Positions 7,814 to 52,962 of a DNA stretch of 64,000 nucleotides are shown here, piece after piece; the stretch's first letter is position 1; each line of letters opens with the position of its first letter. Location: positions 2,769 to 66,768 of the forward strand of contig CANJNG010000004.1 in assembly GCA_947475205.1 (NCBI GenBank), read 5' to 3'. The notes beneath the pieces are model-generated. The model did no database searches and was not told the DNA's origin. It was given only the letters and a program-made list of their open reading frames with translations. The translations under genes and the position numbers were made by a program. The DNA is from Bacteroidota bacterium (GTDB lineage: Bacteria; Bacteroidota; Bacteroidia; JAIBAJ01).

Positions 7814-10369
7814 TCATGGTTTCTTAATAAATATAAACTGCCCACCTTCATCTCCCGTGTTTTTAATGGGAGAAAATTTTGGTGTTTGTTCAGAATTGTT
7901 AATTACCGGAATTTTCACTTTGGTGTAAAGCTGACTGGCATCGAAGTATTTGCTTTGGTTTGATTCAAGCGTTTTTAGGAAATAATAGGCAAACACAGAG
8001 TGGCCATCTTTGCCGCCATCCATCACGGGTTCGAGTCCGCCTGATGTAAGTGCCTGGCGACTACTTAGGCTTTGAACTTCTTTGTAGTATTTTTCTGATT
8101 CTTCAAACGGCACCGAAACAGTATTTCCACGGAAGATATCCCCGCTAAAGCAAGCATCGGAAACTAATAAGGTGTGCTTACCCTTTATTCCGCTTATATA
8201 GGTTTGGATATCGGAATTGGAAATATACTTGGCTGTAGAAGAATTTTCGGCATCTGCCGGCACCCAATATCCTTTATTCAGCTCTTTTTTGTATTCGCCG
8301 TGGCCGGAATAGTAAATGAACACATTGTCTTCTGCTTTTACGTTGGCCACCAACCATTCTAATTGGGCAATTATATTTTCACGATTGGCTTGCTCGTTAT
8401 AAAGGGTTTTGAAAAACTCGAATTTGTAGCTGGCACGAAGCAGCTTTTCAATGGCACGGGCATCGTTGGTGGCATTTTGCAGTACCGGCCAAGTGCCTTT
8501 ATATTTATCAATCCCGATAATGAGAGCGTAATAATTGCCAATGACCATTGTTTTGGCTTTCGACACATTTAAACCTTTAAGGGGATCGCCACCTCCTCGA
8601 TACAAATTGGCATTAGGGTCGGTTTTTTGTTGTTCCAATTCGTTGGCCTGAGCTATAACATCAGCCGAATAGTCTTCGCCCGCCGAAAGGTTTTCGTTCA
8701 ACTTTACTCGTAGAATTAACTCTTTTGCATTGGTGAAAGCCGCTCCTTCAATATCCACTCCCATTTTTATTTCAGAAAGGGTAAATGTTTTATCTGCATA
8801 AAACTCCATAGCTATTTCTCGCTCTTCGCCTGCTGCCATTGCAGGGATTTGCTCTGAAATTTTATTCACCGCAAAAACGTGTTCAGGTAGCAGGAAATTC
8901 ACCTTAATATTTCGGGCTGCCCCTTTTGTAATGTTTTTAATTTTTAGTTTTAGCGTAATTGGAGCACCAATTTCAGCTTTTCCTGTGGCAGAAGTGTAGC
9001 TTTGATTCATCACCATGATGTAACTATAACTTCCGGCACCACCCGTTTGAAATGAGAGTCTGGTAGGGGAAGCATCGCTACCGTTGGCTTCAGAAATGTT
9101 CAACACGAATGCTCCGTTTCCGGCTTGCAAATCAGCATTGGCATTTATGGGAATACTTATACTCTGACTTTTATCCCCGCCCAAATTGCCAATAAATACT
9201 TCTTTATCAAAACTGATGTCGGACGTTGGATTATCGAGCGATAATTTTGCAATCAAACGATAGGCATCACCTTTGCTTTGATTTTTAACTGTGAATGTGA
9301 GGGATGCCTTCTCGCCTCCCTCTATTATTCCGTTGCTATTTTCATCAGCAATTGTCAGGTTAGTGCAAACTAAAGTTGGAGCAACTTCGGGCTTTGGGTA
9401 CTTTGGTAATCCGAATTTTAGTTCGGTCATATCCCAAAATATCAAGCCTCCATCTATCCCACCCGAAATCAATTGTGACATTGCACTATTAAAAGCAATT
9501 GCACTCACATTACTTCCAGTAATTCCAATTTCTTTAACCGTTTTTTCCGTTTCGGTATGCCAGATTAAAATCTTCTTGTCATCGCCGCCCGCAATAACAT
9601 ATTGCACATCGGGGCTAAACGTTACTGTATTTATCTGCCCTTTCACCCCTTCAAATTCTTTTACCTTGGTAAAAGTTTTCCCATCCCAAAGCGTTACTTT
9701 CCCATTTCCGCCGCCGCCTGCCAAATATTTCCCATCACCGCTGAAGGACAGTGCTGATACCCCTTTGCTATCAATATCTATAGTCTGAATTAAAGTTCCC
9801 GCTAGTGCATCCCAAATTTTGATGGTATTGTCTAAGGCAGCACTGACTAAGCGTTTGCCATCGGGACTAAAAACCACCGAAGTAATTTCCTTGCTGTGAC
9901 CACTGAGGGTAAAAACAGACGTTTTGCTTTTGCTATTATCCCACACCTTTAAGGAGTTGTCTTTAGCTCCGCTAACAATATAGTCGTTGATGGGATTAAA
10001 CGCCACAGCAGTAACGGCAGCAGTGTGTTCAGCCAAAATGCGAATCGGAACACCCTGAGCAATATCCACTACCCGCACTTTCATATCTGAGCAACCCGAA
10101 ACATAGAGTTTGTTACTTGCATTAATAGCCACAGCGTTCACCTTATCGTTCTGCTTCATTGCCCCTTTAAGCTTTTCAGTGGTTTTGGTGTTCCACACAA
10201 AGGTTTTGAAATCGTTTCCGCCCGATACCAAAATGTTTCCATCAGAACTTATTGCCAAAGCGTTTACGCCACCATCGTGAGCATTGGTTTTAATTTTCGC
10301 TGGCTGATCTTGGGCGTGAAGGTTGATGCCAAGGGTAATGAACCCAAACAGGATTATGCATTTTTTCAT
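7814..10369 (-). CDS. Secreted WD40-repeat / CARDB-like / caspase (peptidase C14) fusion protein
   Basis: The signal peptide is MKKCIILFGFITLGINLHAQ, from the internal Met at 10369. About seven WD40 blades follow (repeated xSGGxDxxxxxWD motifs). Two beta-sandwich CARDB-like segments come next. The C-terminal caspase domain has the His-Cys dyad (YYSGHGEY ... LLVSDACFSGDIF). Confidence 0.7.
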   Translation of the reverse strand: MKKCIILFGFITLGINLHAQDQPAKIKTNAHDGGVNALAISSDGNILVSGGNDFKTFVWNTKTTEKLKGAMKQNDKVNAVAINASNKLYVSGCSDMKVRVVDIAQGVPIRILAEHTAAVTAVAFNPINDYIVSGAKDNSLKVWDNSKSKTSVFTLSGHSKEITSVVFSPDGKRLVSAALDNTIKIWDALAGTLIQTIDIDSKGVSALSFSGDGKYLAGGGGNGKVTLWDGKTFTKVKEFEGVKGQINTVTFSPDVQYVIAGGDDKKILIWHTETEKTVKEIGITGSNVSAIAFNSAMSQLISGGIDGGLIFWDMTELKFGLPKYPKPEVAPTLVCTNLTIADENSNGIIEGGEKASLTFTVKNQSKGDAYRLIAKLSLDNPTSDISFDKEVFIGNLGGDKSQSISIPINANADLQAGNGAFVLNISEANGSDASPTRLSFQTGGAGSYSYIMVMNQSYTSATGKAEIGAPITLKLKIKNITKGAARNIKVNFLLPEHVFAVNKISEQIPAMAAGEEREIAMEFYADKTFTLSEIKMGVDIEGAAFTNAKELILRVKLNENLSAGEDYSADVIAQANELEQQKTDPNANLYRGGGDPLKGLNVSKAKTMVIGNYYALIIGIDKYKGTWPVLQNATNDARAIEKLLRASYKFEFFKTLYNEQANRENIIAQLEWLVANVKAEDNVFIYYSGHGEYKKELNKGYWVPADAENSSTAKYISNSDIQTYISGIKGKHTLLVSDACFSGDIFRGNTVSVPFEESEKYYKEVQSLSSRQALTSGGLEPVMDGGKDGHSVFAYYFLKTLESNQSKYFDASQLYTKVKIPVINNSEQTPKFSPIKNTGDEGGQFIFIKKP

Positions 10370-23220: not shown

Positions 23221-23472
23221 ACACGTGTTTTGCCAAGGTTCTATATGTAGAATGATGCCCGGACACGTGTTTTGCCAAGGTTCTATATGTGGAATGATGC
23301 CCGGACACGTGTTTTGCCAAGGTTCTACATGTAGAATGATGCCCGGACACGTGTTTTGCCAAGGTTCTATATGTAGAATGATGCCCGGACACATGTTTTG
23401 CCAAGGTTCTATAGTTAGAATGATGTCCGGACACGTGTTTTGCCAAGGTTCTATATGTGGAATGATGCTCGA
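23221..23472. repeat. Tandem array, 42-bp unit x6, each unit carrying ACACGTGT and TTCTA-N4-TAGAA palindromes
   Basis: Units start at 23221, 23263, 23305, 23347, 23389 and 23431. The consensus is ACACGTGTTTTGCCAAGGTTCTATATGTAGAATGATGCCCGG with 1-3 substitutions per unit. The ORFs at 23171..23545 and on the complementary strand are repeat artefacts. Confidence 0.9.
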
Positions 23473-23709
23473 TAAGTTTATTTTGCTAAAGGGTAGGTGT
23501 GATATTTATAGAATGGGATTATTCGGGGGTATTTGGATGGGGTAGGATGTGCGATGGGGTAGAGGGTTCAGATTTTATTTGTGGGATATTTAAAAATAGG
23601 CCTTAGACCTACAACGCGAAAGGGCAAGGTTGATAAGCTTTGCTCAGCGAAGTTTTGGGTTATCTAGGAGTGAGCTATAGATTTTATTGCATTTCCTATT
23701 TTTGCTCCA

Positions 23710-24341
23710 TGAAATTTACCATTGAAAACCTACACCATAAAATCGAAGATTTTTTGGGTGACGATAACGTTACCTTTCATTTCGATATTCATATTTCGGA
23801 ACCGGAAGAGTTTTTGATAAAAAACTATCCCTTCCATTATCATGAACTCACACACTATCTGCAAGAAGCCAATCCGGCCTTGCATGCTTATTTAAGTAAG
23901 ATTCGCAAGGATATTGGGGGTTGGGGGCCAAAGGAAAATAAAATATTCGAGGCCCTGGAACCCGACACTCTTAATGAAGTTTATAAGTATGTGGAAGAGT
24001 GCCTCCTTAAACGAGATTGGCAATTGGTATATGAACGAGAACAGAAATGGAAGAAAATGGCACTTGAAGCTAAGGTGGAAGAGCACAAGAAAATAGAGAA
24101 GGTTTTTGATGATCTTAGTGAGGGTATGCCCAATGCTTCAATGATGCAGCGAAAGTTTTACCGTTTTGCTGAAACTGTGGAAAAGCAAATTCAGGCAACT
24201 GCCGTTGATATTTACCCCGAACTAATGAATGGAAATGCCGAGCAAATGGACGAGTTCCGATATTTATTCAGCCGCGAAGTAAGCTCGATGCATGAAAGGC
24301 TTTCTAAACATTTAGAAAGCATAAGGAAGGCAAATACATGA
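23710..24341 (+). CDS. Hypothetical protein (charged, predicted helical/coiled-coil)
   Basis: The ORF at 23640..24341 has an internal Met at 23710 (MKFTIENLHHK...). It is rich in E/K heptad-like segments. No known domain was recognised. Confidence 0.45.
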
Positions 24342-24425
24342 CGAGAGAAGAGGCAATTGGAACAAGTCGAATTGGCAGTGTGTAATGCAATATAAAAGGG
24401 TTTATTGTCTAACCCATTTAAATAC

Positions 24426-24482
24426 AATTTTTCCACACCTTTGCCGCCCCCAATGAGCAAAGCCACCACCGCAACGGAAACG
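24426..24482 (+). repeat. Duplicate of the mutS promoter-proximal/5' coding segment (about 55 bp, ~93% identical to 25574-25630)
   Basis: AATTTTTCCACACCTTTGCCGCCCCCAATGAGCAAAGCCACCACCGCAACGGAAAC at 24426-24482 matches AATTTTTCCACACCTTTGCCACCCCAATGAGCAAAGCCACCACCGCAGCGGAAAC at the authentic mutS start. The copy encodes MSKATTATETKG followed by a stop. Confidence 0.85.
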
Positions 24483-24487
24483 AAGGG

Positions 24488-25336
24488 TTAATGCTGTACG
24501 CTTATTCTTGCATTTATGTGGCGATGACCTACTGTTAGTTTCAGTAAGTAAATGCCATTAGCCAAATTGCCGGTATTAAAGTCCACTTCGGTGATTCCTG
24601 ATGCCATAAATACATTATTTGTCGCCGAAATAGATTGCCCCAAACAGTTTTCTAAGCTATAAGATACATCATTAGGTTTGTCTAAGTTCAACCGAAGTTT
24701 GGTTGCCTCGTTAGCTGGATTTGGGAACAAATCATAACTAAAATCAAGATCCATGATTTCGGTAGTGCTATTAGGCGATATTCCGCACTTGCCAGCAATA
24801 TAATCTCTTAAATTTACTTCATTGGTAAGTGAATTGCTTAGTTTGTAAAGTTTCTTATCCTCGCAAACCACAAATATTGCAGGTAAACCATACGTTTGTC
24901 CGGGCTGCACGAATTTCAGAACAACAGAATTAGAATTTGCGGGATCGCAAATCGGATGGGTAGTCCCCGTAATCCAATCGCCTTGAGTATTTGTACCCGT
25001 TCCTTGCAAATCCGCCATATCTGTTGAATTATCCACTTCGTAAAGAAACACTTCTGCATCTTTTACTTCACTTGTTCCCGTAGGTCCATATAGATTATAG
25101 TATCTATCCAGCACTTCGCTTTGATGATACCCCCAACATATTCCGCACCAAGTAGCCGACAAATCAATAATGACATGTTTGCCTGCATTTGTCATAGTAA
25201 ACAGGTCGTGGCTTACGTTGTTTAAATCGGTAAGTGTAGCGGTAGTAGAAATTGCGGTTCCGTCCGGATAATACACCTGAGATCTAGAAGTGAAGGCTGT
25301 GGCTAAAATAGCCAATAAGAGTAGGTTTTTTTTCAT
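24488..25336 (-). CDS. Secreted thioredoxin-like protein with T9SS C-terminal sorting domain
   Basis: It has a signal peptide (MKKNLLLLAILATAFTSRSQ) and a CxxC motif in thioredoxin-like context (DLSATWCGICWGYH). The C-terminal Por secretion tail reads NGIYLLKLTVGHRHINARISVQH. Confidence 0.65.
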   Translation of the reverse strand: MKKNLLLLAILATAFTSRSQVYYPDGTAISTTATLTDLNNVSHDLFTMTNAGKHVIIDLSATWCGICWGYHQSEVLDRYYNLYGPTGTSEVKDAEVFLYEVDNSTDMADLQGTGTNTQGDWITGTTHPICDPANSNSVVLKFVQPGQTYGLPAIFVVCEDKKLYKLSNSLTNEVNLRDYIAGKCGISPNSTTEIMDLDFSYDLFPNPANEATKLRLNLDKPNDVSYSLENCLGQSISATNNVFMASGITEVDFNTGNLANGIYLLKLTVGHRHINARISVQH

Positions 25337-25601
25337 GACGAATATTTTCGTTTGGTTAATATAGACTACAAATATAGTATATCTGTTAAATATAAAGTTA
25401 GCATCCGTTGAAATAAATTCCTCTTATGGTAACTTTTCATCCAAATTTTAGACGCCTGAAGATTAGCCCCCGACCTATACTGACTCCAATCAAAGGAAGT
25501 TTCGGCTACGAAATTTGCTAATTGATATTAACGTTTGGTTCATAAACAATGGGGTAATTGTCATACTTTTCATCCAATTTTTCCACACCTTTGCCACCCC
25601 A

Positions 25602-28226
25602 ATGAGCAAAGCCACCACCGCAGCGGAAACCCCGCTGATGAAGCAATACAACGGCATTAAGTCCAAACATCCCGATGCGATATTGCTGTTTAGGGTAGGC
25701 GATTTCTACGAAACATTTGGCGAAGATGCCGTGAAGGCTTCCAAGGTGCTGGGCATCGTGCTTACCAAGCGGGGAAGTGGTTCGGCTACCGAGGTGGCTT
25801 TGGCCGGATTTCCCTACCACTCCCTCGAAACGTATTTGCCGAAATTGGTTCGGGCAGGCTATCGGGTGGCGGTGTGTGACCAGTTAGAAGATCCCAAGTT
25901 TACCAAAACCATTGTGAAGCGGGGCGTCACCGAAATGGTAACGCCGGGGGTAACGTTTAATGACCATATACTCGAAGCTAAATCGAACAACTTTTTGGCA
26001 GCAGTGTATTTTGACAAAACACAGTTCGGGCTTGCTTTTCTCGATGTATCCACCGGTGAGTTTCTAGCCGGAGCGGGAGATAAAGAATATGCCGACAAGT
26101 TGCTGCAAAGCTTCCGGCCCGGAGAAATTCTTTTCCCTAAACAAAACAAGAACATTTTCAGGGAAAACTTTGGCGGCATCAGCTCTGAGTTTGGGCTGGA
26201 AGATTGGGTGTTCTCCGACGATTATTCGCAAGAACTGCTGCTCAAGCATTTCGCCACCAAATCGCTAAAAGGTTTTGGGTTTGAAAAGAACGGATTGCAT
26301 ACCATAGCGGCGGGTGCGGCACTGCATTATTTGTCTGAAACCCGCCACGACAGGCTGAAACATATCACGAAGCTTCAGCTTATCCAAGAAGAGAATTTCG
26401 TTTGGCTGGATAAGTTCACGATTCGTAACCTCGAAATATTTGGTACAAACACACCAGGAGGAACAGCCTTGGTGGATATTCTGGATAATACATGCACGCC
26501 GATGGGTGGCCGCTTGCTGAAACGCTGGGTGGCATTGCCGCTCAAAAACCGCAAGGCGATAGAAGACCGATTGAATGCGGTTTCAGAACTGAAGGACAAT
26601 GCAGAGCTGAAAGATAATCTGCAAAAGCACCTGTCTTCGGTAGGCGATTTGGAAAGGCTGATGTCGAAGATTGCGGCAGCACGCATCAATCCCCGCGAGG
26701 TAGTGCAACTCCGAAGAACCTTAGAATTGCTTGTTCCGATAAAGGAACTGTGCCTGTCGGCCAACTCCGCTCCGCTCAAACATATAGGCGAACAACTGAA
26801 CCCCTGCCTTTCTATGGTGGAGAAGATTTTCAATGAGGTGCAAGAAGACCCACCGGCATTGGTAAACAAAGGCGGAGTGATAAAAACGGGTGTGAATGCC
26901 GAGTTGGACGAACTACGAGCAATAAGCTCAGCAGGGAAAGATTACCTGCTGCAAGTGCAGCAACGCGAAGCCCTCAAAACGGGCATTACCTCGCTAAAGG
27001 TGGCCTACAATCAGGTGTTTGGTTACTATATTGAAGTGACCAACGCCCACAAAAGTAGAGTGCCCGAAGAATGGGTGCGGAAGCAAACCCTCACCGGTGC
27101 CGAACGCTATATAACCGAGGAGCTAAAAGAATACGAAACCAAGATATTGGGGGCAGAAGAGAAGATTCTGGGCTTGGAAACCCGTCTCTTCGAAGAGTTG
27201 GTTACCGCCTTGGGCGAATACACCGAAGCGGTGCAATTGGATGCTACCTTGGTGGCAAGGCTCGACTGTTTGGTGAACTTTGCCCAAATAGCTATTGACA
27301 ACAACTACGCAAAACCACACCTGAACGATGGCAACATCCTTTCTATAAAACAGGCACGTCACCCGGTTATTGAAAAGCTATTGGCGGTGGGCGAAGAGTA
27401 TGTGCCGAATGATATTCTGCTCGACCCCGAAGATTGTCAGGTGATTATTATGACGGGGCCCAATATGTCGGGTAAATCTGCCTTGCTTCGGCAAACTGCT
27501 TTGGTGGTTATCATGGCTCAGATTGGCTGCTTTGTGCCTGCCCAAAGTGCCGAGATAGGCGTGGTGGACAAAATCTTCACTCGTGTGGGAGCGTCAGACA
27601 ACATTAGTTCGGGAGAGAGTACGTTTATGGTGGAAATGAACGAAACGGCCAGCATCCTGAATAACCTAACACCGAAATCCTTGGTAATATTGGACGAGAT
27701 AGGCCGAGGAACCAGCACCTACGATGGTATTTCTATTGCCTGGGCTATTACGGAATTCCTGCACGAACATCCTTCGGCACGGGCCAAAACAATGTTTGCT
27801 ACTCACTACCACGAACTGAACGAGATGGAAAAGTCCCTTAGCCGTGTGCGGAACTTCTCCATTGCAATAAAGGAGATAAACAACAAGATTATCTTTTTGC
27901 GAAAGCTAATTGCAGGTGGTAGCGAACATAGCTTCGGGATACACGTTGCCCGCATGGCCGGAATGCCGCCCAAGGTGATAGAGCGTGCCAACCAAATACT
28001 TTCGCACCTCGAAAAAGACCATAGTTCGGAAGTCCTAACGGATAGTAAACCTTCCACGGGCAAAAAGGCCGCCCAGCCCGATTACCAGCTTAGCTTCTTC
28101 CAACTCGACGACCCGGTTCTTTCGCAAATCAAAGACGAAATATTGAAAACGGACATCAACACCTTAACTCCTGTGGAGGCTTTGATGAAGCTGAATGAGA
28201 TTAAGAAGGTGCTGTTGGGGAAATGA
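25602..28226 (+). CDS. mutS: DNA mismatch repair protein MutS
   Basis: The ATG at 25602 gives [37 protein letters not shown]... Walker A is GPNMSGKS, and the [12 protein letters not shown] and HYHEL motifs are present. Length is about 875 aa. Confidence 0.92.
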
Positions 28227-28279: not shown

Positions 28280-29032
28280 TTGACAAAATTGCCAATGAGC
28301 AGAACTTGCTTGCTTTTATTGTTGTTGCTTGCTTTTGAAGGCAAGGGACAATTACGGGGGAAGTATTGTTATACGTATACACTAGAAACGGAATGTTTGA
28401 ATTTCTTGAATGATTCGGTTTTAGAACGTGAATGTGAAAATTTTGAGCATGTGAAACAATCCAAATCTATAATGTGGTACACTGTAGAAGGAAATATGTT
28501 GCGATTTAAATCTATTCGGACAAAACCATTTCTCCAAAATACTGAGGTTGTAGAGATTGATGATGTTCCTGAACTGGAAATAAGCAAATCCCCTAGTGTA
28601 AAGGACTCTTTAAGTGTGTGTGTGAAAGTCTTTGATTTTAAAACTAAAGAAGAATTGAAAAACCTGGATTGTAGTATGACACTATTTCAAAACGGCAAAA
28701 GAATTGCCACAGCTAAGTCCCCAAGAAATTCAGCGATTGTTCCCTGCATCAAAATGAAAGGGCAATTGGATTCTCTTAGATTAAACATCTATGGATTTGA
28801 ATATTACAGAGCAAATAACATTGAAATCAAATCGGGGAACTCATACAGTATTAATGCTTTTTTGAAACCAATGCAACTTGAATCAATACATCCGGTTTTA
28901 ATAATCCCCAAGACTTTTGTATATGAAGTTGGTGATATTAAAAGGGAATACATTGAGTTGAAAGGAGAGCACTCACCAGATAGTTATTGGGAAGGCGTTC
29001 ATCAAAAGGTGAAATATTTGCGGGTGAAATAA
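28280..29032 (+). CDS. Hypothetical secreted protein (low-GC cassette inserted at the mutS 3' end)
   Basis: 250 aa with a hydrophobic N-terminus (LLLLLLLAFEGKG). No domain was recognised. The gene is about 35% GC against about 48% for mutS. Copies of the mutS terminus flank it. Confidence 0.5.
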   Translation: MTKLPMSRTCLLLLLLLAFEGKGQLRGKYCYTYTLETECLNFLNDSVLERECENFEHVKQSKSIMWYTVEGNMLRFKSIRTKPFLQNTEVVEIDDVPELEISKSPSVKDSLSVCVKVFDFKTKEELKNLDCSMTLFQNGKRIATAKSPRNSAIVPCIKMKGQLDSLRLNIYGFEYYRANNIEIKSGNSYSINAFLKPMQLESIHPVLIIPKTFVYEVGDIKREYIELKGEHSPDSYWEGVHQKVKYLRVK

Positions 29033-29045
29033 TTCTTGGCTTTAA

Positions 29046-29070
29046 TGAAACTGAATGAGATTAAGAAGGT
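29046..29070 (+). repeat. Partial second copy of the mutS 3' terminus (TGAAACTGAATGAGATTAAGAAGGT)
   Basis: 24 of 25 bases match 28186-28210 (TGAAGCTGAATGAGATTAAGAAGGT). Confidence 0.8.
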
Positions 29071-29071
29071 A

Positions 29072-29361
29072 CTACTCCACCTCGCCACCATATCTAATGT
29101 GATAGATAATTATACTTTGTTTACCCACCTTGTAAGCAAATACCCATTTTTTGTCAAATGTGGCACAATGTAGCCCTTGAGCCAAAAGTTTGGGGCTTTT
29201 ACATAGTGGATAAGCCTTGTAATAATTTCCGAGATGGTAGCCAAACTCAATTAAACTTTCGGCATACTTAATTGCCGTTTCCGGCATTTTTATTCAGTAG
29301 CAATATAGTCGGCTATTTGTTCAATACTTGATAGTGCTGCTTTTCTGATAAGCACTTTCAT
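29072..29361 (-). pseudogene. ParE/RelE-family type II toxin, disrupted by a 2-bp insertion (N-terminal 23-aa ORF plus C-terminal 71-aa ORF)
   Basis: The reverse strand encodes MKVLIRKAALSSIEQIADYIATE, then a stop, then in the +2 frame MPETAIKYAESLIEFGYHLGNYY...WVFAYKVGKQSIIIYHIRYGGEVE. Together they fit the ParE pattern (A-x-x-D-L-x-x-I-x-x-Y-I ... P-x-x-A ... Y-R-V-x-x-x-x-I-x-I-x-R-I-x-H). Removing TA from the complement of 29291-29292 would fuse them into a single ~95-aa ORF. Confidence 0.5.
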
Positions 29362-29555
29362 TACTTGGCCATTTTCTTTGCTTCAATTCTTTTACTCACC
29401 TCCCCTTTGAGTTCAGCAGCAAAAACATCAAACGAAACTGTATCAGCCTCTTCGTCCAAAAACACAATACCCTTACTCTTTTCGGCCAATACTTTTGCAG
29501 CAGCTAATAGTGCTTTCCCCGCATTGGTGTTTTCGTTTATTTCTATGGTAACCAT
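29361..29555 (-). CDS. Putative antitoxin of the ParE-like module
   Basis: 64-aa ORF directly upstream of the toxin. Its TAA stop shares the A of the toxin ATG (TAATG overlap). It is a small charged protein without a recognisable fold. Confidence 0.4.
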   Translation of the reverse strand: MVTIEINENTNAGKALLAAAKVLAEKSKGIVFLDEEADTVSFDVFAAELKGEVSKRIEAKKMAK

Positions 29556-29599
29556 TTGGTGAAAATTGATAAAGCAAAGATATAGGATTTGAGTAAGCC

Positions 29600-29656
29600 C
29601 CTGTGGAGGCTTTGATGAAGCTGAATTAGATTAAGAAGGTGTTTCTTGGGAGGGGA
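29600..29656 (+). repeat. Third copy of the mutS 3' terminus (about 45 bp with 1 mismatch, then divergent tail)
   Basis: CCTGTGGAGGCTTTGATGAAGCTGAATTAGATTAAGAAGGTG compared with authentic CCTGTGGAGGCTTTGATGAAGCTGAATGAGATTAAGAAGGTG at 28170-28211. Confidence 0.85.
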
Positions 29657-29796: not shown

Positions 29797-31251
29797 ATGA
29801 AACTACCTTTGCCGCCCACAATGTCTTCTCGGATTCTACTTTTTTCTGCCATCATTGCCTTTCTTTGGCTTGGATTTTCTTCCTGTAAAAAGGATAAATT
29901 TACCACCAATGGTGCTTTAGATTTCAGTAACGATACCGTAATTTTCGACACCGTTTTTACTCAAATTGGCTCGTCCACCAAAGCGTTTAAGATTTACAAT
30001 ACCCACAACGAGAATATCCGCATCAGCAAAATATACATTGCGGGAGGCGAAACAAGTAAGTATAGGATGAATATTGACGGGGTTTCCGGTCGGGTTTTTA
30101 CCGATATTGAAATTGCCCCAAACGACAGTATGTGGGGTTTTGTAGAAGTTACCCTCGACCCCAACAATCAAAACACCCCGCTCATTGTTACCGATAGCAT
30201 TATCTTTGAAACCAACGGGGTTCAGCAAGATATAGATTTGGTGGCTTTTGGTCAGGACGCTATTTTCCTCTATCCCGAACCCGGTAATTTTGGCTTTTAC
30301 CTTGATTGCAGCGAACTTAACTGGAATAGCACAAAACCTTATGTGATATATGGCCAGGCAATTGTTAAACCTGGCTGCACTCTAGATATGGCTCCGGGTA
30401 CTCGGGTTTATATTCATAAATATTCCAGTTTGGCTATTGCAGAGGGGGCGGGCTTAGATATTCATGGGACTAAATCAGATAGTGTAATAATTCAAGGCGA
30501 TCGTTTAGAGTTGGACTACCGCGAACTACCCGGTCAGTGGCAAGGACTTTTCATCAAACAACCCATATTGGCCAATATTGATTATGCCGTTATTAAAAAT
30601 GGCAATTTGGGAATATTCTGTGATGGTGATAGCACAAATTCTATTCCGGCTTCTGCCACTGTTCATATTACCAATACTAAGGTCTTAAATATGGGAGCAA
30701 CCTGCTTTTATGGCCGGCATAGCAAAGTTAAGATGGAGAATTGTGTTTGGGGGAATGGAGCACAGTATGTTGCAGCATTTACTCAGGGAGGGGATTATGA
30801 ATGCAATAATTGCACCTTTGCTGATTATTATTCTTATGCTACTCGTAACACCCCTGCCGTACTCATTACCAATTATTTTCAAGACGAAAATGACGTGGTC
30901 TATTCTTACGACCTAACAAATATTCTTTTTAATAATTGCCTGATATATGGCAGTAATCCTTCTGAATTAGAATTTAGTAATCAAGGTGGCGGCCAATTTA
31001 ATTATAAGTTTAGAAATACTATGTTTCGGGTTAAAGATGATTTCAGTTCATCGGATGCCAATTATTTTGAATCCATTTACAGAAACCCCAATGGTGACAG
31101 CTTGTTCGTGAACTCGGCCATCAATGACTACCATTTAAGACAAACTTCACCTGCAAGAGACAAAGGCAATAGCGGTGCAACACCAATAGATATTGATGGT
31201 AAACCCCGTGATAGCTCCCCCGACCTTGGTGCTTATGAATTTATTCCGTAG
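29797..31251 (+). CDS. Putative lipoprotein with right-handed parallel beta-helix (pectate-lyase-like) repeats
   Basis: The N-terminus has a signal with a possible lipobox (WLGFSSC). Multiple N/G/T-rich repeats are typical of beta-helix proteins (NGNLGIFCDGDSTNS, NTKVLNMGATCFYGRHS, NNCLIYGSNPSE). Confidence 0.55.
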   Translation: MKLPLPPTMSSRILLFSAIIAFLWLGFSSCKKDKFTTNGALDFSNDTVIFDTVFTQIGSSTKAFKIYNTHNENIRISKIYIAGGETSKYRMNIDGVSGRVFTDIEIAPNDSMWGFVEVTLDPNNQNTPLIVTDSIIFETNGVQQDIDLVAFGQDAIFLYPEPGNFGFYLDCSELNWNSTKPYVIYGQAIVKPGCTLDMAPGTRVYIHKYSSLAIAEGAGLDIHGTKSDSVIIQGDRLELDYRELPGQWQGLFIKQPILANIDYAVIKNGNLGIFCDGDSTNSIPASATVHITNTKVLNMGATCFYGRHSKVKMENCVWGNGAQYVAAFTQGGDYECNNCTFADYYSYATRNTPAVLITNYFQDENDVVYSYDLTNILFNNCLIYGSNPSELEFSNQGGGQFNYKFRNTMFRVKDDFSSSDANYFESIYRNPNGDSLFVNSAINDYHLRQTSPARDKGNSGATPIDIDGKPRDSSPDLGAYEFIP

Positions 31252-47262: not shown

Positions 47263-47811
47263 TTTGAAGTTATGAACACTTATATTAATTAAATCAATTT
47301 GTATTTTTTGAAATTTATAAAAATTAAAACCTTTTACTATTAATGATAGCCTGTTGAAACGGTTAGTAACCCTTGAAAAACGGGTGTTTTCCCGCAAGGT
47401 TATCAGCTACAGAATCCGGAGTTTTAAACATATTACAATTTGGCAAAAGTACAGAAATCAGCTACTTGTAAAGTAATTAACAAAGGCTGTAAAAACTTAT
47501 CATTTTCCCCGAAAAACATCTCTCCTTTTGTGTGTACTACTTGTGTGTAACTGCTCCCTAAAAAAGCATAAGTTTATGTAATTCGGCTGCATTCTATGCT
47601 AATGCACATTCCCAAACGATATACAAGCATAAAGTTTTGGAATTCTTCACACACACTAACCCGCCGTAGCTAACAATAAAACAGGGCAATTGTTAATAGA
47701 AAAAGCAGATTTTAGCATTGTAGTGAAAAGCTGTTCATAACCTGTGAATAGCTAACAAATTCATTTTTGGAGCAGAACTTTCCATCTTCCATCCCAACGT
47801 TTGGGTCCCGC

Positions 47812-47925
47812 TTTCGCCTATAGCCGCCTCAAATGCAGGCGGGCTATTTGGCTCTACCGGGGCTAGGGAGACAGGGAAGTGCTTTGATGGGAGGGTGTTT
47901 AATACCATTCGGGGGCATAAAAACG
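47812..47925 (+). repeat. About 110-bp element, copy A (GCCTATAGCCGCC...GGCGGGCTATTTGGC hairpin plus downstream conserved block)
   Basis: About 80% identical to 48574-48680. It lies roughly 70 bp upstream of the vapB-like gene. Confidence 0.8.
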
Positions 47926-48550: not shown

Positions 48551-48573
48551 ACTCCCATAACATTTACTGCCTC

Positions 48574-48680
48574 TTTTGCCTATAGCCGCCCCAAATGCTG
48601 GTGGGCTATTTGGCTCAATCGGGGCTAGGTCGACAGGGCGATGCTATAATGGGCGGGTGCTAAATACCCATTCGGCAAAA
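48574..48680 (+). repeat. About 110-bp element, copy B
   Basis: The block runs TTTGCCTATAGCCGCCCCAAATGCTGGTGGGCTATTTGGCTC...GATGCTATAATGGGCGGGTGCTAAATACCCATTCGG. It contains a TGcTATAAT-like extended -10 box. It lies about 100 bp upstream of the methyltransferase gene. Confidence 0.8.
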
Positions 48681-48784
48681 ATCCAACGTTAATAAATAAG
48701 GATATATATTTTTTGAATCTTATTAAATGAATCAATTTCAGTTGTTCTTTTGTAACCATTGTATAAGGTTAAACTACTTGGTTA

Positions 48785-50025
48785 TGAAAGACTATTTATC
48801 ATTGACAGAAACTTCTGAGTATCTTGGGAAAAGCAAACAAACGCTAAGAAGATGGGATAAAGAAAAAAAGCTTGTTGCTGTTCGAGAGCCCATGAGTAAT
48901 TATAGGGTTTATAAAAGAGAACAACTTGAACTCTTTGCTGATTTCATTTCAAATACAGACAAAACTGATTATCCCAATGAAATAGATTCAGAAAACGAGT
49001 ACTCCGTTTTAGAACTATTTGCAGGAGCTGGTGGCTTAGCTGTAGGCTTGGAAAAAGCAGGATTAAAATGCGTTGCCTTAAATGAGATTGATAAATGGGC
49101 TTGCCAAACCTTAAGAAGAAACAGACCCAACTGGAAGGTGCTTGAGGGGGATATTAGAGCATTTGATTTCGTTGAATATAGAGATAGGGTCGATGTTGTT
49201 ACCGGAGGATTTCCATGCCAAGCCTTTAGTTATGCTGGCAAAAGACTTGGGTTGAGCGATGCCCGTGGAACTTTGTTTTACGAATTTGCAAGAGTGGTAA
49301 ATGAAATAAAACCACCAATTTGTATCGGTGAAAATGTGAGAGGGCTTTTAAGTCATGATAATGGCAGGACGTTAAGCGGAATGATTTCCATATTAGATGA
49401 AATTGGCTATAAAGTAGTTCCATATCGAATCCTGAAAGCGATAAACTATTATGTGCCGCAGAAAAGAGAACGATTGATTTTAGTTGGAGTTAGGAAAGAT
49501 ATTCAGATTGAATATCACTATCCAAAACCCACTAAGAAAATCTACACCCTAGCGGATGCACTAAAGAAAGGAGAACTATTTGACAAGGATGTTCCTGTTT
49601 CTGCCGGGGCTAAATATCCAAAGAGTAAAATTGATGTCATGAATTTGGTGCCTCCAAAGGGCTATTGGAGAGATTTGCCTTTAGATATCCAAAAGGAATT
49701 TATGGGTGGAAGTTTCTACCTTGGTGGAGGTAAGACCGGGATGGCAAGAAGAATAGGATGGGATGAGCCTTGCTTGACGCTTACTTGCAGCCCTGCTCAA
49801 AAGCAAACCGAAAGATGTCACCCCGATGAAACAAGACCTTTTACAGTAAGAGAATATGCCCGCATTCAAACATTCCCTGATGACTGGGAATTTGAAGGCT
49901 CAGTTGCTCAGCAATACAAGCAAATTGGAAATGCTGTACCAGTTAACTTAGGCAAGGAGGTTGGCTATTCCATAATCGAATTTTTGAATCAATATTATGC
50001 TCTAAAAGCCGAAAGAATAAAGTAA
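48785..50025 (+). CDS. DNA (cytosine-5)-methyltransferase with N-terminal MerR/Xis-like HTH
   Basis: C5-MTase motifs are present: I ELFAGAGGLAVG, IV GGFPCQAFSYAGK, VI ENVRGLL, and X near the C-terminus (GNAVPVNLG). The N-terminus reads LSLTETSEYLGKSKQTLRRWDKEKKL, consistent with an HTH. The start may instead be at 48727. Confidence 0.9.
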
Positions 50026-50733
50026 CTACTTGTATTTTTCTTGAATTTCTTTGGCCAGAGATTTTATAGTTTGTTCCACTACCTTACTTGCGTCAACTTC
50101 TAAAGCAACTTCACCAATGGCGTCAATCAATTCAAAATAAAAGTCGTCTTTTCCTGTAAGCCTATGCCAAAAATCTTTCCCAACAAAAACAGGATATGTA
50201 TTTCCGATTTTTTTATAATGTGAGCTAAGTTCTGCTGCTTCGCCATATACCACACAAACTATCATATCGTTGATGCCAACATTTATATTATTGGTTCTGG
50301 CAAGGCTACGAACGCCATTAAAGTGATTAATTATGGTAGTTACATCGTCATGATTGATTGTGTTTGGCCCTGCTTTTAACTGACAATATTTTTTCCTTCC
50401 GTCAATTGCATCTATAAATTCAATGTCGATTCCTTGAGTAGTAGAACCTAAGCCCTGAAATAAGGTGCTGATTAAACTCTGAATCTTCATTCCAAAGGAA
50501 GTATTAATTGAAGAGCCTAAAATTCGTGGCAGAACAAGAGCCCGGGCAATGCTTTCCGCATCATCGTTCCCTGTAAGGAAATTTGCCAGGTATTTAAATA
50601 AAAAGGGGTTAACATTGTATTCCGACAGTTTACTTGCTCTTTTGCAAGCACCGTCAATATGGCTTTGTACAATTTCATTTCTGAAAAACGTTTTTGCATT
50701 TTCAATTATTTGTTTTCTCTGACTATTGTTCAT
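50026..50733 (-). CDS. Putative type II restriction endonuclease (cognate of the C5-MTase)
   Basis: 235-aa ORF convergent with the MTase gene, with stop codons 1 bp apart. It has a candidate PD-(D/E)xK-like segment (GIDIEFIDAIDGRKKYCQLK). The region is low in GC. Confidence 0.45.
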   Translation of the reverse strand: MNNSQRKQIIENAKTFFRNEIVQSHIDGACKRASKLSEYNVNPFLFKYLANFLTGNDDAESIARALVLPRILGSSINTSFGMKIQSLISTLFQGLGSTTQGIDIEFIDAIDGRKKYCQLKAGPNTINHDDVTTIINHFNGVRSLARTNNINVGINDMIVCVVYGEAAELSSHYKKIGNTYPVFVGKDFWHRLTGKDDFYFELIDAIGEVALEVDASKVVEQTIKSLAKEIQEKYK

Positions 50734-50943: not shown

Positions 50944-50984
<41 letters not shown>

Positions 50985-51040
50985 TAAGCTATTAAATTCC
51001 AAAAAAATTTTTTCCGGGTTTAACGAAGGGAAGCAAACAG

Positions 51041-51300
51041 GGTCTATTTCTGTCCGAAGTAAGGCTATTTCCATCCGAAATAGGGCTGTTTCCATTCGAA
51101 ATAGGGCTGTTTCCATCCGAAACAGGGCTGTTTCCGTCCGAAATAGGGCTATTTCCATCCGAAATAGGGCTATTTCCATCCGAAGTAAGGCTATTTCCAT
51201 CCGAAACAGGGCTGTTTCCATCCGAAACAGGGCTGTTTCCATCCGAAATAGGGCTGTTTCCATCCGAAATAGGGCTGTTTCCATCCGAAATAGGTCTATT
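51041..51300. repeat. 21-bp minisatellite, about 12 units (consensus GGCTGTTTCCATCCGAAATAG)
   Basis: Units differ at 1-3 positions (ATTT vs GTTT, AATAG vs AACAG vs AGTAA). The ORFs 50911..51306 (+) and 50982..51284/50992..51312 (-) are repeat artefacts. Confidence 0.9.
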
Positions 51301-51362
51301 TTCTAAACTCAAAACTTCGTTTACATCTTAAATATTTATATTAATCCCTAAAAATCAATACA

Positions 51363-51980: not shown

Positions 51981-52006
51981 GCATTTATGTAATAAAGTAT
52001 AAAAAG

Positions 52007-52056
52007 GGCGAAGCGAATGTGGCTTCGCCTTTTTTTATGCCCACCCATGCCACGCC
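52007..52056 (+). terminator. Rho-independent terminator (GGCGAAGC-loop-GCTTCGCC + T7) followed by conserved box ATGCCCACCCATGCCACGCC
   Basis: The perfect 8-bp stem at 52007-52029 has T-run 52030-52036. The 27-nt string TTTTTTTATGCCCACCCATGCCACGCC recurs at 52936-52962, after the next gene. Confidence 0.7.
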
Positions 52057-52890: not shown

Positions 52891-52911
52891 TCATTATCTA
52901 AATTAAAAAAA

Positions 52912-52962
52912 GGGCGTGGCTTAATTAGCTACGCCTTTTTTTATGCCCACCCATGCCACGCC
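52912..52962 (+). terminator. Second terminator plus ATGCCCACCCATGCCACGCC box
   Basis: An imperfect hairpin (GGGCGTGGCTTAATTAGCTACGCC) is followed by T7, then an identical 20-nt box. Confidence 0.6.

Follow-up and report, generated by a model that had tools for sequence, protein, structure and literature searches.

The mutS gene analysed here lies in a 64,000-nt stretch of a Bacteroidota genome (assembly GCA_947475205.1, contig CANJNG010000004.1, positions 2,769 to 66,768), hereafter the window, and on both sides it is accompanied by short additional copies of its own ends. From left to right, the locus consists of a 210-aa hypothetical gene, a copy of the mutS start (copy A), a minus-strand gene for a thioredoxin-fold protein secreted by the type IX secretion system (T9SS), the functional start (copy B) with the intact mutS, a 245-aa gene, a first extra copy of the mutS 3' end (c2), a minus-strand toxin–antitoxin-like pair, a second such copy (c3) and a 484-aa gene (Table 1). 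Around the intact gene there are one 5' orphan of 11 codons and two 3' orphans of 13 and 17 codons, with the copies in direct orientation and 0.6–1.4 kb apart.

An earlier note on this DNA had described a 55-bp duplication of the mutS start, and both copies proved to lie where it placed them to within 1 nt. In a BLAST search against the 64-kb window, 24425-24481 aligned with 25575-25630 over 57 columns at 94.7% identity (54/57 identical, one 1-nt indel, E=1.4e-18), and a weaker extension back to 24395 and 25548 lengthens the repeat to 87 nt at 84%. The 57-nt block comprises the mutS 5' leader and codons 1–11. Copy A forms a pseudo-open reading frame (24453-24491) that begins at ATG (24453), reads MSKATTATETKG and ends in a TAA (24489-24491) that overlaps the stop of the T9SS gene on the minus strand (24488-25336). 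Its homology stops abruptly at ...GGAAAC, at the T/P codon junction within the conserved ETPLMKQY and 6 nt from the T9SS stop codon; in copy B the corresponding boundary, 25630, falls in the loop of a small hairpin, CAGCGG-AAACC-CCGCUG. The block had also been taken to span the end of the mutS promoter, which we could not uphold: the canonical Bacteroidota -7 box (TAnnTTTG) is absent from it, and the -7-like element closest to it (TACTTTTC, at 25564) falls just beyond the high-identity portion, with nothing corresponding to it in copy A.

That duplicated tips mark both ends of mutS, as the earlier note held, was borne out on the 3' side as well, where the gene end recurs twice (29038-29077 and 29600-29651). 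By BLAST, the resident segment (28170-28221) is found again at 29600-29641 (42 nt, 97.6%, E=8e-17) and at 29038-29070 (33 nt, 93.9%, E=4e-9), and all three 3' copies share one common 33-nt core with 2 mismatches. Copy c2 differs from the resident c1 at five positions, all of them synonymous and four of them G to A changes at third codon positions, and it retains the lineage-specific IKKVLL where relatives have IKRVLGK. Synonymous-only divergence of this kind implies that c2 evolved separately, under selection, as the end of a real gene. The 5' copies point the same way, as copies A and B are 95% identical over the leader and coding part and only about 65% identical further upstream, a gradient that orthologous regulatory DNA would show but a neutral copy would not. 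Copy c3, in turn, departs from the resident end after 42 nt and has another C-terminal tail with an in-frame TAG. Judged by sequence, then, the copies appear to be what is left of diverged mutS alleles, and not in-situ duplicates in decay. Such remnants can also mislead gene callers: public gene calls on 29045-29173 include a spurious 42-aa open reading frame (ORF), which is the C-terminal fragment encoded by c2 running on into non-coding DNA.

Table 1. Genes and mutS-derived segments at the mutS locus of the window, in order of position.
Feature	Position	Strand	Description
210-aa hypothetical gene	23709..24341	+	From ORF list; 233-aa ORF from TTG 23640; left neighbour of copy A
Copy A, orphaned mutS 5' copy	24395..24481	+	Core 24425-24481 = leader position -25 to codon 11; homology weaker back to 24395
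T9SS-secreted thioredoxin-fold protein, 282 aa	24488..25336	-	WCGICW motif; C-terminal Por_Secre_tail (PF18962, TIGR04183)
Possible third, degraded copy of distal mutS leader	25432..25457	+	ACTTTTCATCCAAATTTT...; repeat search, 85% over 26 nt
Copy B, functional mutS 5' copy	25548..25630	+	Leader, codons 1-10 and first two bases of codon 11
Intact mutS	25602..28226	+	ATG 25602; 874 aa; all five MutS Pfam domains
Copy c1, resident mutS 3' terminal segment	28170..28221	+	Encodes 17 residues
Cargo 1, 245-aa secreted or lipoprotein-like ORFan	28295..29032	+	AT-rich, GC 0.35; stop 3-6 nt before c2
Copy c2, orphaned mutS 3' copy	29038..29077	+	Encodes 13 residues
Cargo 2, degenerate toxin–antitoxin-like pair	29072..29555	-	ORFs and a weak Pfam match
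Copy c3, orphaned mutS 3' copy	29600..29651	+	42-nt match, then another C-terminal tail and in-frame TAG
484-aa beta-helix gene	29797-31251	+	Follows c3

The same arrangement was recovered in at least 15 contigs, which come from at least 10 samples and were built by three assembly pipelines; the metagenome-assembled genomes GCA_947477075.1 and GCA_947468485.1 are among them. We therefore reject an assembly artefact, the more so as the divergence between the copies leaves them no k-mers in common and independent assemblers gave the same result. Our search for variants consisted of exact-protein look-ups (the MutS, T9SS, 484-aa and 210-aa proteins) and a cluster look-up, and it returned the same clonal structure only. 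The presence/absence polymorphism that had been envisaged was not found within the species, all contigs being in agreement and only a sister lineage (below) differing, and the arrangement appears to be fixed in the sampled population.

Two familiar sources of short repeats were considered and rejected. Target-site duplication by a transposon does not fit repeats of 33–87 nt that are non-identical and enclose cargo whose ends lack inverted repeats, with no transposase among the approximately 38 window ORFs scanned with Pfam, and the earlier preference for recombination at the mutS boundaries over such a duplication was sound. An integron cassette array fails because the repeats are mutS coding ends without an attC-like fold, and no integrase is found among those ORFs. 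Duplicated coding tips are also rare. When the tips of other Bacteroidota mutS genes, taken from among the matches listed in scans of GTDB genomes and JGI metagenomes (≤65% identity), were re-blasted against their own flanks, none of 158 loci carried a duplicated 5' tip and none of 152 a duplicated 3' tip; these loci were not used for synteny. Since both ends of the same gene are affected in a single lineage, a common cause is needed.

The intact mutS is itself atypical in composition and location. Its G+C content at third codon positions (GC3) is 0.570, against a mean of 0.395 (standard deviation 0.057), which is the highest value of 44 window ORFs (z=+3.1), and its overall GC is 0.49. GC3 is evenly high along the whole gene, and a mosaic test against four relatives gave no breakpoint, relatives at 77–83% identity affording that test little power. 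In two relatives whose mutS is 82% and 80% identical, the gene has a GC3 like that of its own neighbours (0.41 and 0.36). The closest mutS relatives, at 77–83% identity, have different flanks. In three of the four closest lineages the gene stands in a conserved context (Rhomboid/M16 peptidase, mutS, CarbopepD_reg_2, IMPDH), and the 64-kb window contains none of the genes that flank mutS in these four relatives. Among the matches listed, a SpoU-family rRNA methylase is the gene most often found upstream of mutS (45 of 130 Bacteroidota loci, mostly on the opposite strand); it is missing from this position both in the window lineage and in its 77–83% relatives. We conclude that mutS is here an isolated conserved gene within a flexible stretch, in a neighbourhood that is not ancestral.

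This flexibility extends to the strain level. About 1 kb upstream of the duplication, a 42-bp tandem array (23221-23468, 5.9 copies, 93% matches; also seen in L001, L005, L185 and L197) with the palindrome ACACGTGT is the exact switch point between two left contexts in strains that are otherwise >99.7% identical. One context carries cytochrome c and a 318-aa gene; the alternative has a longer array and carries two Metallophos genes that the window does not contain, one of which has a T9SS sorting domain.

A sister lineage, represented by a 1,249-bp contig (Logan SRR12053443_322687; L172), bears on the history of the 5' side. Its T9SS protein is 83% identical to that of the window, and the unit of T9SS gene, intergenic region and mutS leader and start is conserved at about 81% DNA identity. 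No counterpart of copy A is present within the 66 nt of contig beyond the T9SS stop. Since the unit is kept in L172, the adjacency of the T9SS gene and mutS is, judging from this contig, older than copy A. The T9SS gene is then no simple insert, contrary to the earlier view of 24483-25573 as DNA inserted between the two copies, and the upstream copy A is better read as the displaced remnant of another mutS start. L172 also had its own episode: the mutS frame runs through MSKAITAAETELMRQ to a stop, after which the sequence diverges, and 16 nt further on comes the stop of another opposite-strand gene. Its mutS start is orphaned after codon 15, at about +46, as opposed to +32 for copy A, so that by this comparison mutS start orphaning occurred independently, and at a different position, in that lineage. 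A marginal match to the distal mutS leader inside the window's own intergenic region (the possible third copy in Table 1; by BLAST 18 nt at 94%, E=0.018) forms the opening of a stretch of about 95 nt that is missing in L172.

L172 also bears on whether the upstream copy might be kept for a function; it could provide a second promoter, act as a decoy start or terminate the T9SS transcript. Structure is unusually pronounced around the real start, where 25565-25640 (mutS leader and start) is predicted to fold into two hairpins at -16.8 kcal/mol (z=-4.5 against shuffled sequences); the first of these encloses the AUG, and the leader may serve translational control of mutS. A weak terminator-like hairpin for the T9SS transcript is also found at 24415-24398, within distal copy A. 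However, copy A itself is no more stably folded than its shuffled versions (plus strand, z=+0.56; minus strand, z=+0.46), it has no -7-like box, and the regions upstream of mutS in the 77–83% relatives are unrelated to that of the window. As L172 also has no copy downstream of its T9SS gene, which already largely refutes such a role, we consider a functional duplicated leader very improbable indeed.

Similar repeats occur elsewhere in the window, where diverged direct repeats of 64–106 nt bracket cassettes of about 0.8–0.9 kb at two other loci. Repeats of this kind are about seven times as frequent here (four per 64 kb) as in other Bacteroidota loci (0.58 per 64 kb, counted over 2.33 Mb). At the first locus, a 106-nt direct repeat (47808-47912 and 48570-48675, 83% identity) with a conserved hairpin and no Rfam match surrounds a PIN/VapC toxin module. 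This repeat pair lies just upstream of an HTH-Dcm methylase and EcoO109I-type restriction pair (48727-50733). At the second locus (51993-52056 and 52899-52962), the repeats are two intrinsic terminators whose stems differ by compensatory changes while their 31-nt tails are identical. The cassette of about 0.9 kb between these terminators codes for a small PKD-like lipoprotein, and the pair has the same allelic-duplicate pattern as is seen at mutS. We propose that one displacement process also accounts for the repeat-bracketed cassettes at 47.8 kb and 52 kb.

Could the repeats have arisen by purely local events, such as slippage, unequal crossing-over or template switching within one genome, with no foreign DNA? 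The direct orientation and close spacing of the copies, the tandem arrays and several other short dispersed repeats in this genome, and the 95–98% identity of copy A and c3 to the resident tips would all suit such an origin. It is nonetheless hard to reconcile with a c2 that differs synonymously only, with unrelated cargo genes of other composition between the copies (GC 0.35–0.40, as against 0.49 for mutS), with the compensatory stem changes in the terminator pair at 52 kb, and with a tip duplication in none of about 150 other mutS loci among the matches listed. We regard a local origin as quite improbable.

The reading that we favour, and whose chance of being right we put at about even, is that the copies are scars of terminal displacement. 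DNA from related strains in which mutS has other neighbours would enter the cell and recombine homologously within the conserved mutS, and its non-homologous far end would be joined illegitimately a few tens of nucleotides inside the tip of the resident gene (homology-facilitated illegitimate recombination); single-crossover integration of a circularized fragment would give the same product. Each event would install a complete gene tip together with one or more flanking genes of the donor, and would push the old tip outward as a short orphan with its former neighbour still attached. On the 3' side, the order would have been mutS(c3) with the 484-aa gene first, mutS(c2) with the ParDE-like module next and mutS(c1) with the 245-aa gene last; on the 5' side, an arrangement of the 210-aa gene and mutS(A) would have been overrun by the unit of T9SS gene, intergenic region and mutS(B). 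The 210-aa gene, which adjoins copy A in every one of 13 contigs, presumably once lay upstream of an earlier mutS allele. Today the orphans probably have no function, and what remains in them is a set of substrates for RecA-mediated deletion, direct repeats across which the flanking cargo genes could be lost.

Terminal displacement has a close parallel in the arrays of Rhs and type VI secretion system (T6SS) genes, where an intact gene is followed by orphan fragments that consist of a short conserved end and former downstream genes; there the orphans come from different alleles, and homology-facilitated illegitimate recombination is the proposed mechanism (Kirchberger et al., 2017; PMC5361080). 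As in those arrays, the orphan tips at mutS derive from different alleles, and each sits between cargo and a plausible former neighbour, which supports the displacement reading. Work by Jackson and colleagues from 2009 (Jackson et al. 2009) is reportedly to be named alongside for Rhs C-terminal displacement arrays. The likeness has limits, because Rhs/T6SS genes are polymorphic toxins whose turnover is driven by selection for new toxin–immunity pairs, whereas mutS is a housekeeping repair gene, affected at both its 5' and 3' ends and with orphans of only 11–17 codons. Terminal displacement is supported further by (i) the variable 5' end points (+46 and +32), which fit illegitimate joins, (ii) the position of mutS as the only conserved anchor in a flexible stretch, (iii) the similar diverged repeats around cassettes at the two other window loci, and (iv) the failure to find recombinase, transposase or phage genes among the approximately 38 window ORFs scanned with Pfam. 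The interpretation in the earlier note is supported in part. Of the two causes that it offered, horizontal replacement of the mutS allele gains support from the synonymous-only remnant c2, the GC3 outlier and the non-ancestral neighbourhood.

Several observations weigh against terminal displacement. The junctions are more clustered than random illegitimate joins would be, lying at +32 and +46 on the 5' side and, on the 3' side, 57 and 49 nt ahead of the stop. Both 5' junctions lie in or beside TPLMKQY, the motif targeted by proteobacterial mutS elements. The cargo boundaries are close to gene ends, 3–16 nt from stop codons, and the 5' boundary falls in the spacer of a 6-bp inverted repeat, resembling the core site of a recombinase. 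Further, no donor-type arrangement (the 210-aa gene and mutS without the T9SS gene, mutS with ParDE, or mutS with the 484-aa gene) was found among the species contigs recovered, and the approximately 15–18 contigs that span the junctions are all alike, with no within-species polymorphism. Because neither a donor-type locus nor a polymorphism was found, the order of events given above is a reconstruction and not an observation.

Chu et al. (2017, mBio; PMC5296598) described elements of 4 to >150 kb, each with an integrase, that have inserted into the HTPMMQQ motif at the mutS start in hundreds of beta- and gammaproteobacteria. These elements orphan the host start upstream and supply a new promoter and a new start, unlike that of the host, at a precise position that varies; their integrase lies within about 300 bp of mutS, and some of them excise as circles (PMC5296598). 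The window locus resembles them in having an orphan start upstream of the insert, an intact gene that uses the mutS-proximal start and leader, and a break in or beside (H/E)TP(M/L)M(Q/K)Q whose position varies between lineages. It differs in that its 1.1 kb hold one native-looking gene and no recombinase, its two starts are 95% identical, the host belongs to the Bacteroidota, and the 3' end is duplicated too. The one E. coli mutS locus that we inspected for comparison had no element.

The main rival explanation would be that site-specific integrative elements entered at the mutS start motif and at the 3' end and have since decayed, losing recombinase and cargo and leaving remnants of 0.5–1.1 kb between attL- and attR-like repeats. 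Beyond the anatomy already described for the beta- and gammaproteobacterial elements (PMC5296598), it is favoured by the end points of the orphans, copy A ending ...ET|PLMKQY and the L172 orphan after ...ELMRQ in the homologous motif, and by the 6-bp inverted repeat with the 5' boundary in its spacer. Three 3' copies with one 33-nt core are what tandem accretion at an attachment (att) site would leave, and one cargo is an addiction-type module, going by a weak PF05016 match. Much speaks against it, however. Integrase, recombinase, transposase and phage genes are absent from the insert and from the approximately 38 window ORFs scanned with Pfam, as well as from the eight ORFs nearest mutS searched with NCBIfam and PHROGs, and integrases do not figure among the families common to at least two of 130 Bacteroidota mutS upstream neighbours among the matches listed. 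Neither the 5' nor the 3' block had matches in viral contigs, no empty site or excision product occurred in the junction-spanning contigs of the species, and Rfam and tRNA scans of the window returned nothing; with no tRNA in the window, there is no tRNA-type att site.

The inserts themselves are far smaller than the proteobacterial elements, and the supposed element at the 5' end is one native-looking gene with a genome-typical GC3 that is chromosomal elsewhere. Its supplied and orphaned starts are nearly identical over 57 nt, leader included, while in Vibrio the two differ; L172 has no orphan in the 66 nt beyond its T9SS stop, the expected position of the left att site; and a second, unrelated att site would be needed at the 3' end, with more again for the repeats at 47.8 kb and 52 kb. 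Decayed elements, which would have arrived in succession and each have brought a replacement tip and orphaned that of the host, strike us as possible but doubtful.

A similar accretion is known from the ICESt/CIME elements (integrative and conjugative, and cis-mobilizable, elements) at fda of Streptococcus thermophilus, which accumulate in tandem at the 3' end of a gene, with near-identical att cores and a known integrase. The 3' side of mutS is like them in its direct repeats between successive small cassettes, some of which in both cases lack a recombinase. It is unlike them in having no integrase and in repeats that differ in extent and sequence.

Two more far-reaching scenarios, which together we hold to be unlikely, may be sketched. 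Either mutS would have been repeatedly lost or replaced and re-acquired, its nested tips recording successive replacements, possibly mutator rescues, of at least two 5' and three 3' alleles; or a Bacteroidota cassette system with a recombinase acting in trans would target the same N-terminal MutS motif and swap start and promoter.

The feature is, in any case, a variant of known phenomena, namely orphaned gene tips that result from recombination at a conserved anchor. It is unusual in that both ends of a housekeeping repair gene are involved, in Bacteroidota, with a 5' break point as in the proteobacterial mutS elements. Horizontal exchange of mismatch-repair genes in enterobacteria is said to have been described by Denamur et al. 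2000. For the enterobacterial mutS–rpoS region the evidence consists of phylogenetic mosaicism and variable intergenic content, and the window locus is like that flank in its atypical mutS composition, non-ancestral neighbourhood and strain-variable flanking DNA. To our knowledge, physical remnants of earlier mutS tips on both sides of the gene have not been described in enterobacteria. Phylogenies are the usual evidence for horizontal turnover of mismatch-repair genes; in the window, earlier tips are physically present on both sides of an intact, compositionally foreign mutS, and given sister genomes, the order and donors of the exchanges could be reconstructed from them. The shared 5' break motif raises the question of whether this MutS motif is a general recombination target across phyla.

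As to the neighbouring genes, the 210-aa protein had no match in Pfam or NCBIfam and no meaningful match in PHROGs. The T9SS gene has its own canonical -7 box (TATATTTG, at 25376, minus strand), and homologues of its product carry thioredoxin- or AhpC-TSA-type Pfam matches (PF00085, PF08534, PF00578) or the JGI name thiol-disulfide isomerase/thioredoxin. The family is widespread, and relatives of about 60% identity occur in a PagL-GHL10-T9SS context and not beside mutS.

Among the cargo genes, whose GC is 0.35–0.40, the 245-aa protein matched nothing in Pfam, NCBIfam, PHROGs, plasmids or phages, and its 90% cluster has a single member; searches of the cargo proteins against plasmids and phages by tblastn likewise gave no matches. 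In the toxin–antitoxin-like pair, the upstream gene encodes 64 aa (29361-29555) behind a canonical -7 box (TATCTTTG, at 29582), and the ParE-like toxin (29072-29361), disrupted near 29288-29292 by a frameshift, has no public gene call. When reconstructed, the toxin gives a full-length but weak match to PF05016 (E=7e-4, 20.5 bits, below the cut-off of 23).

Two further tandem arrays, one of 7 bp (50945-50984, 5.7 copies) and one of 21 bp (51053-51301, 11.9 copies), lie between the restriction gene mentioned above and a 205-aa gene, and the region that they occupy (50945-51301) yields long artefactual repeat ORFs on both strands. Finally, an 851-aa protein encoded at 7814-10369, next to a cytochrome oxidase and alternative complex III cluster, contains both WD40 repeats (about five matched) and, at its C-terminus, a caspase domain (Peptidase_C14).

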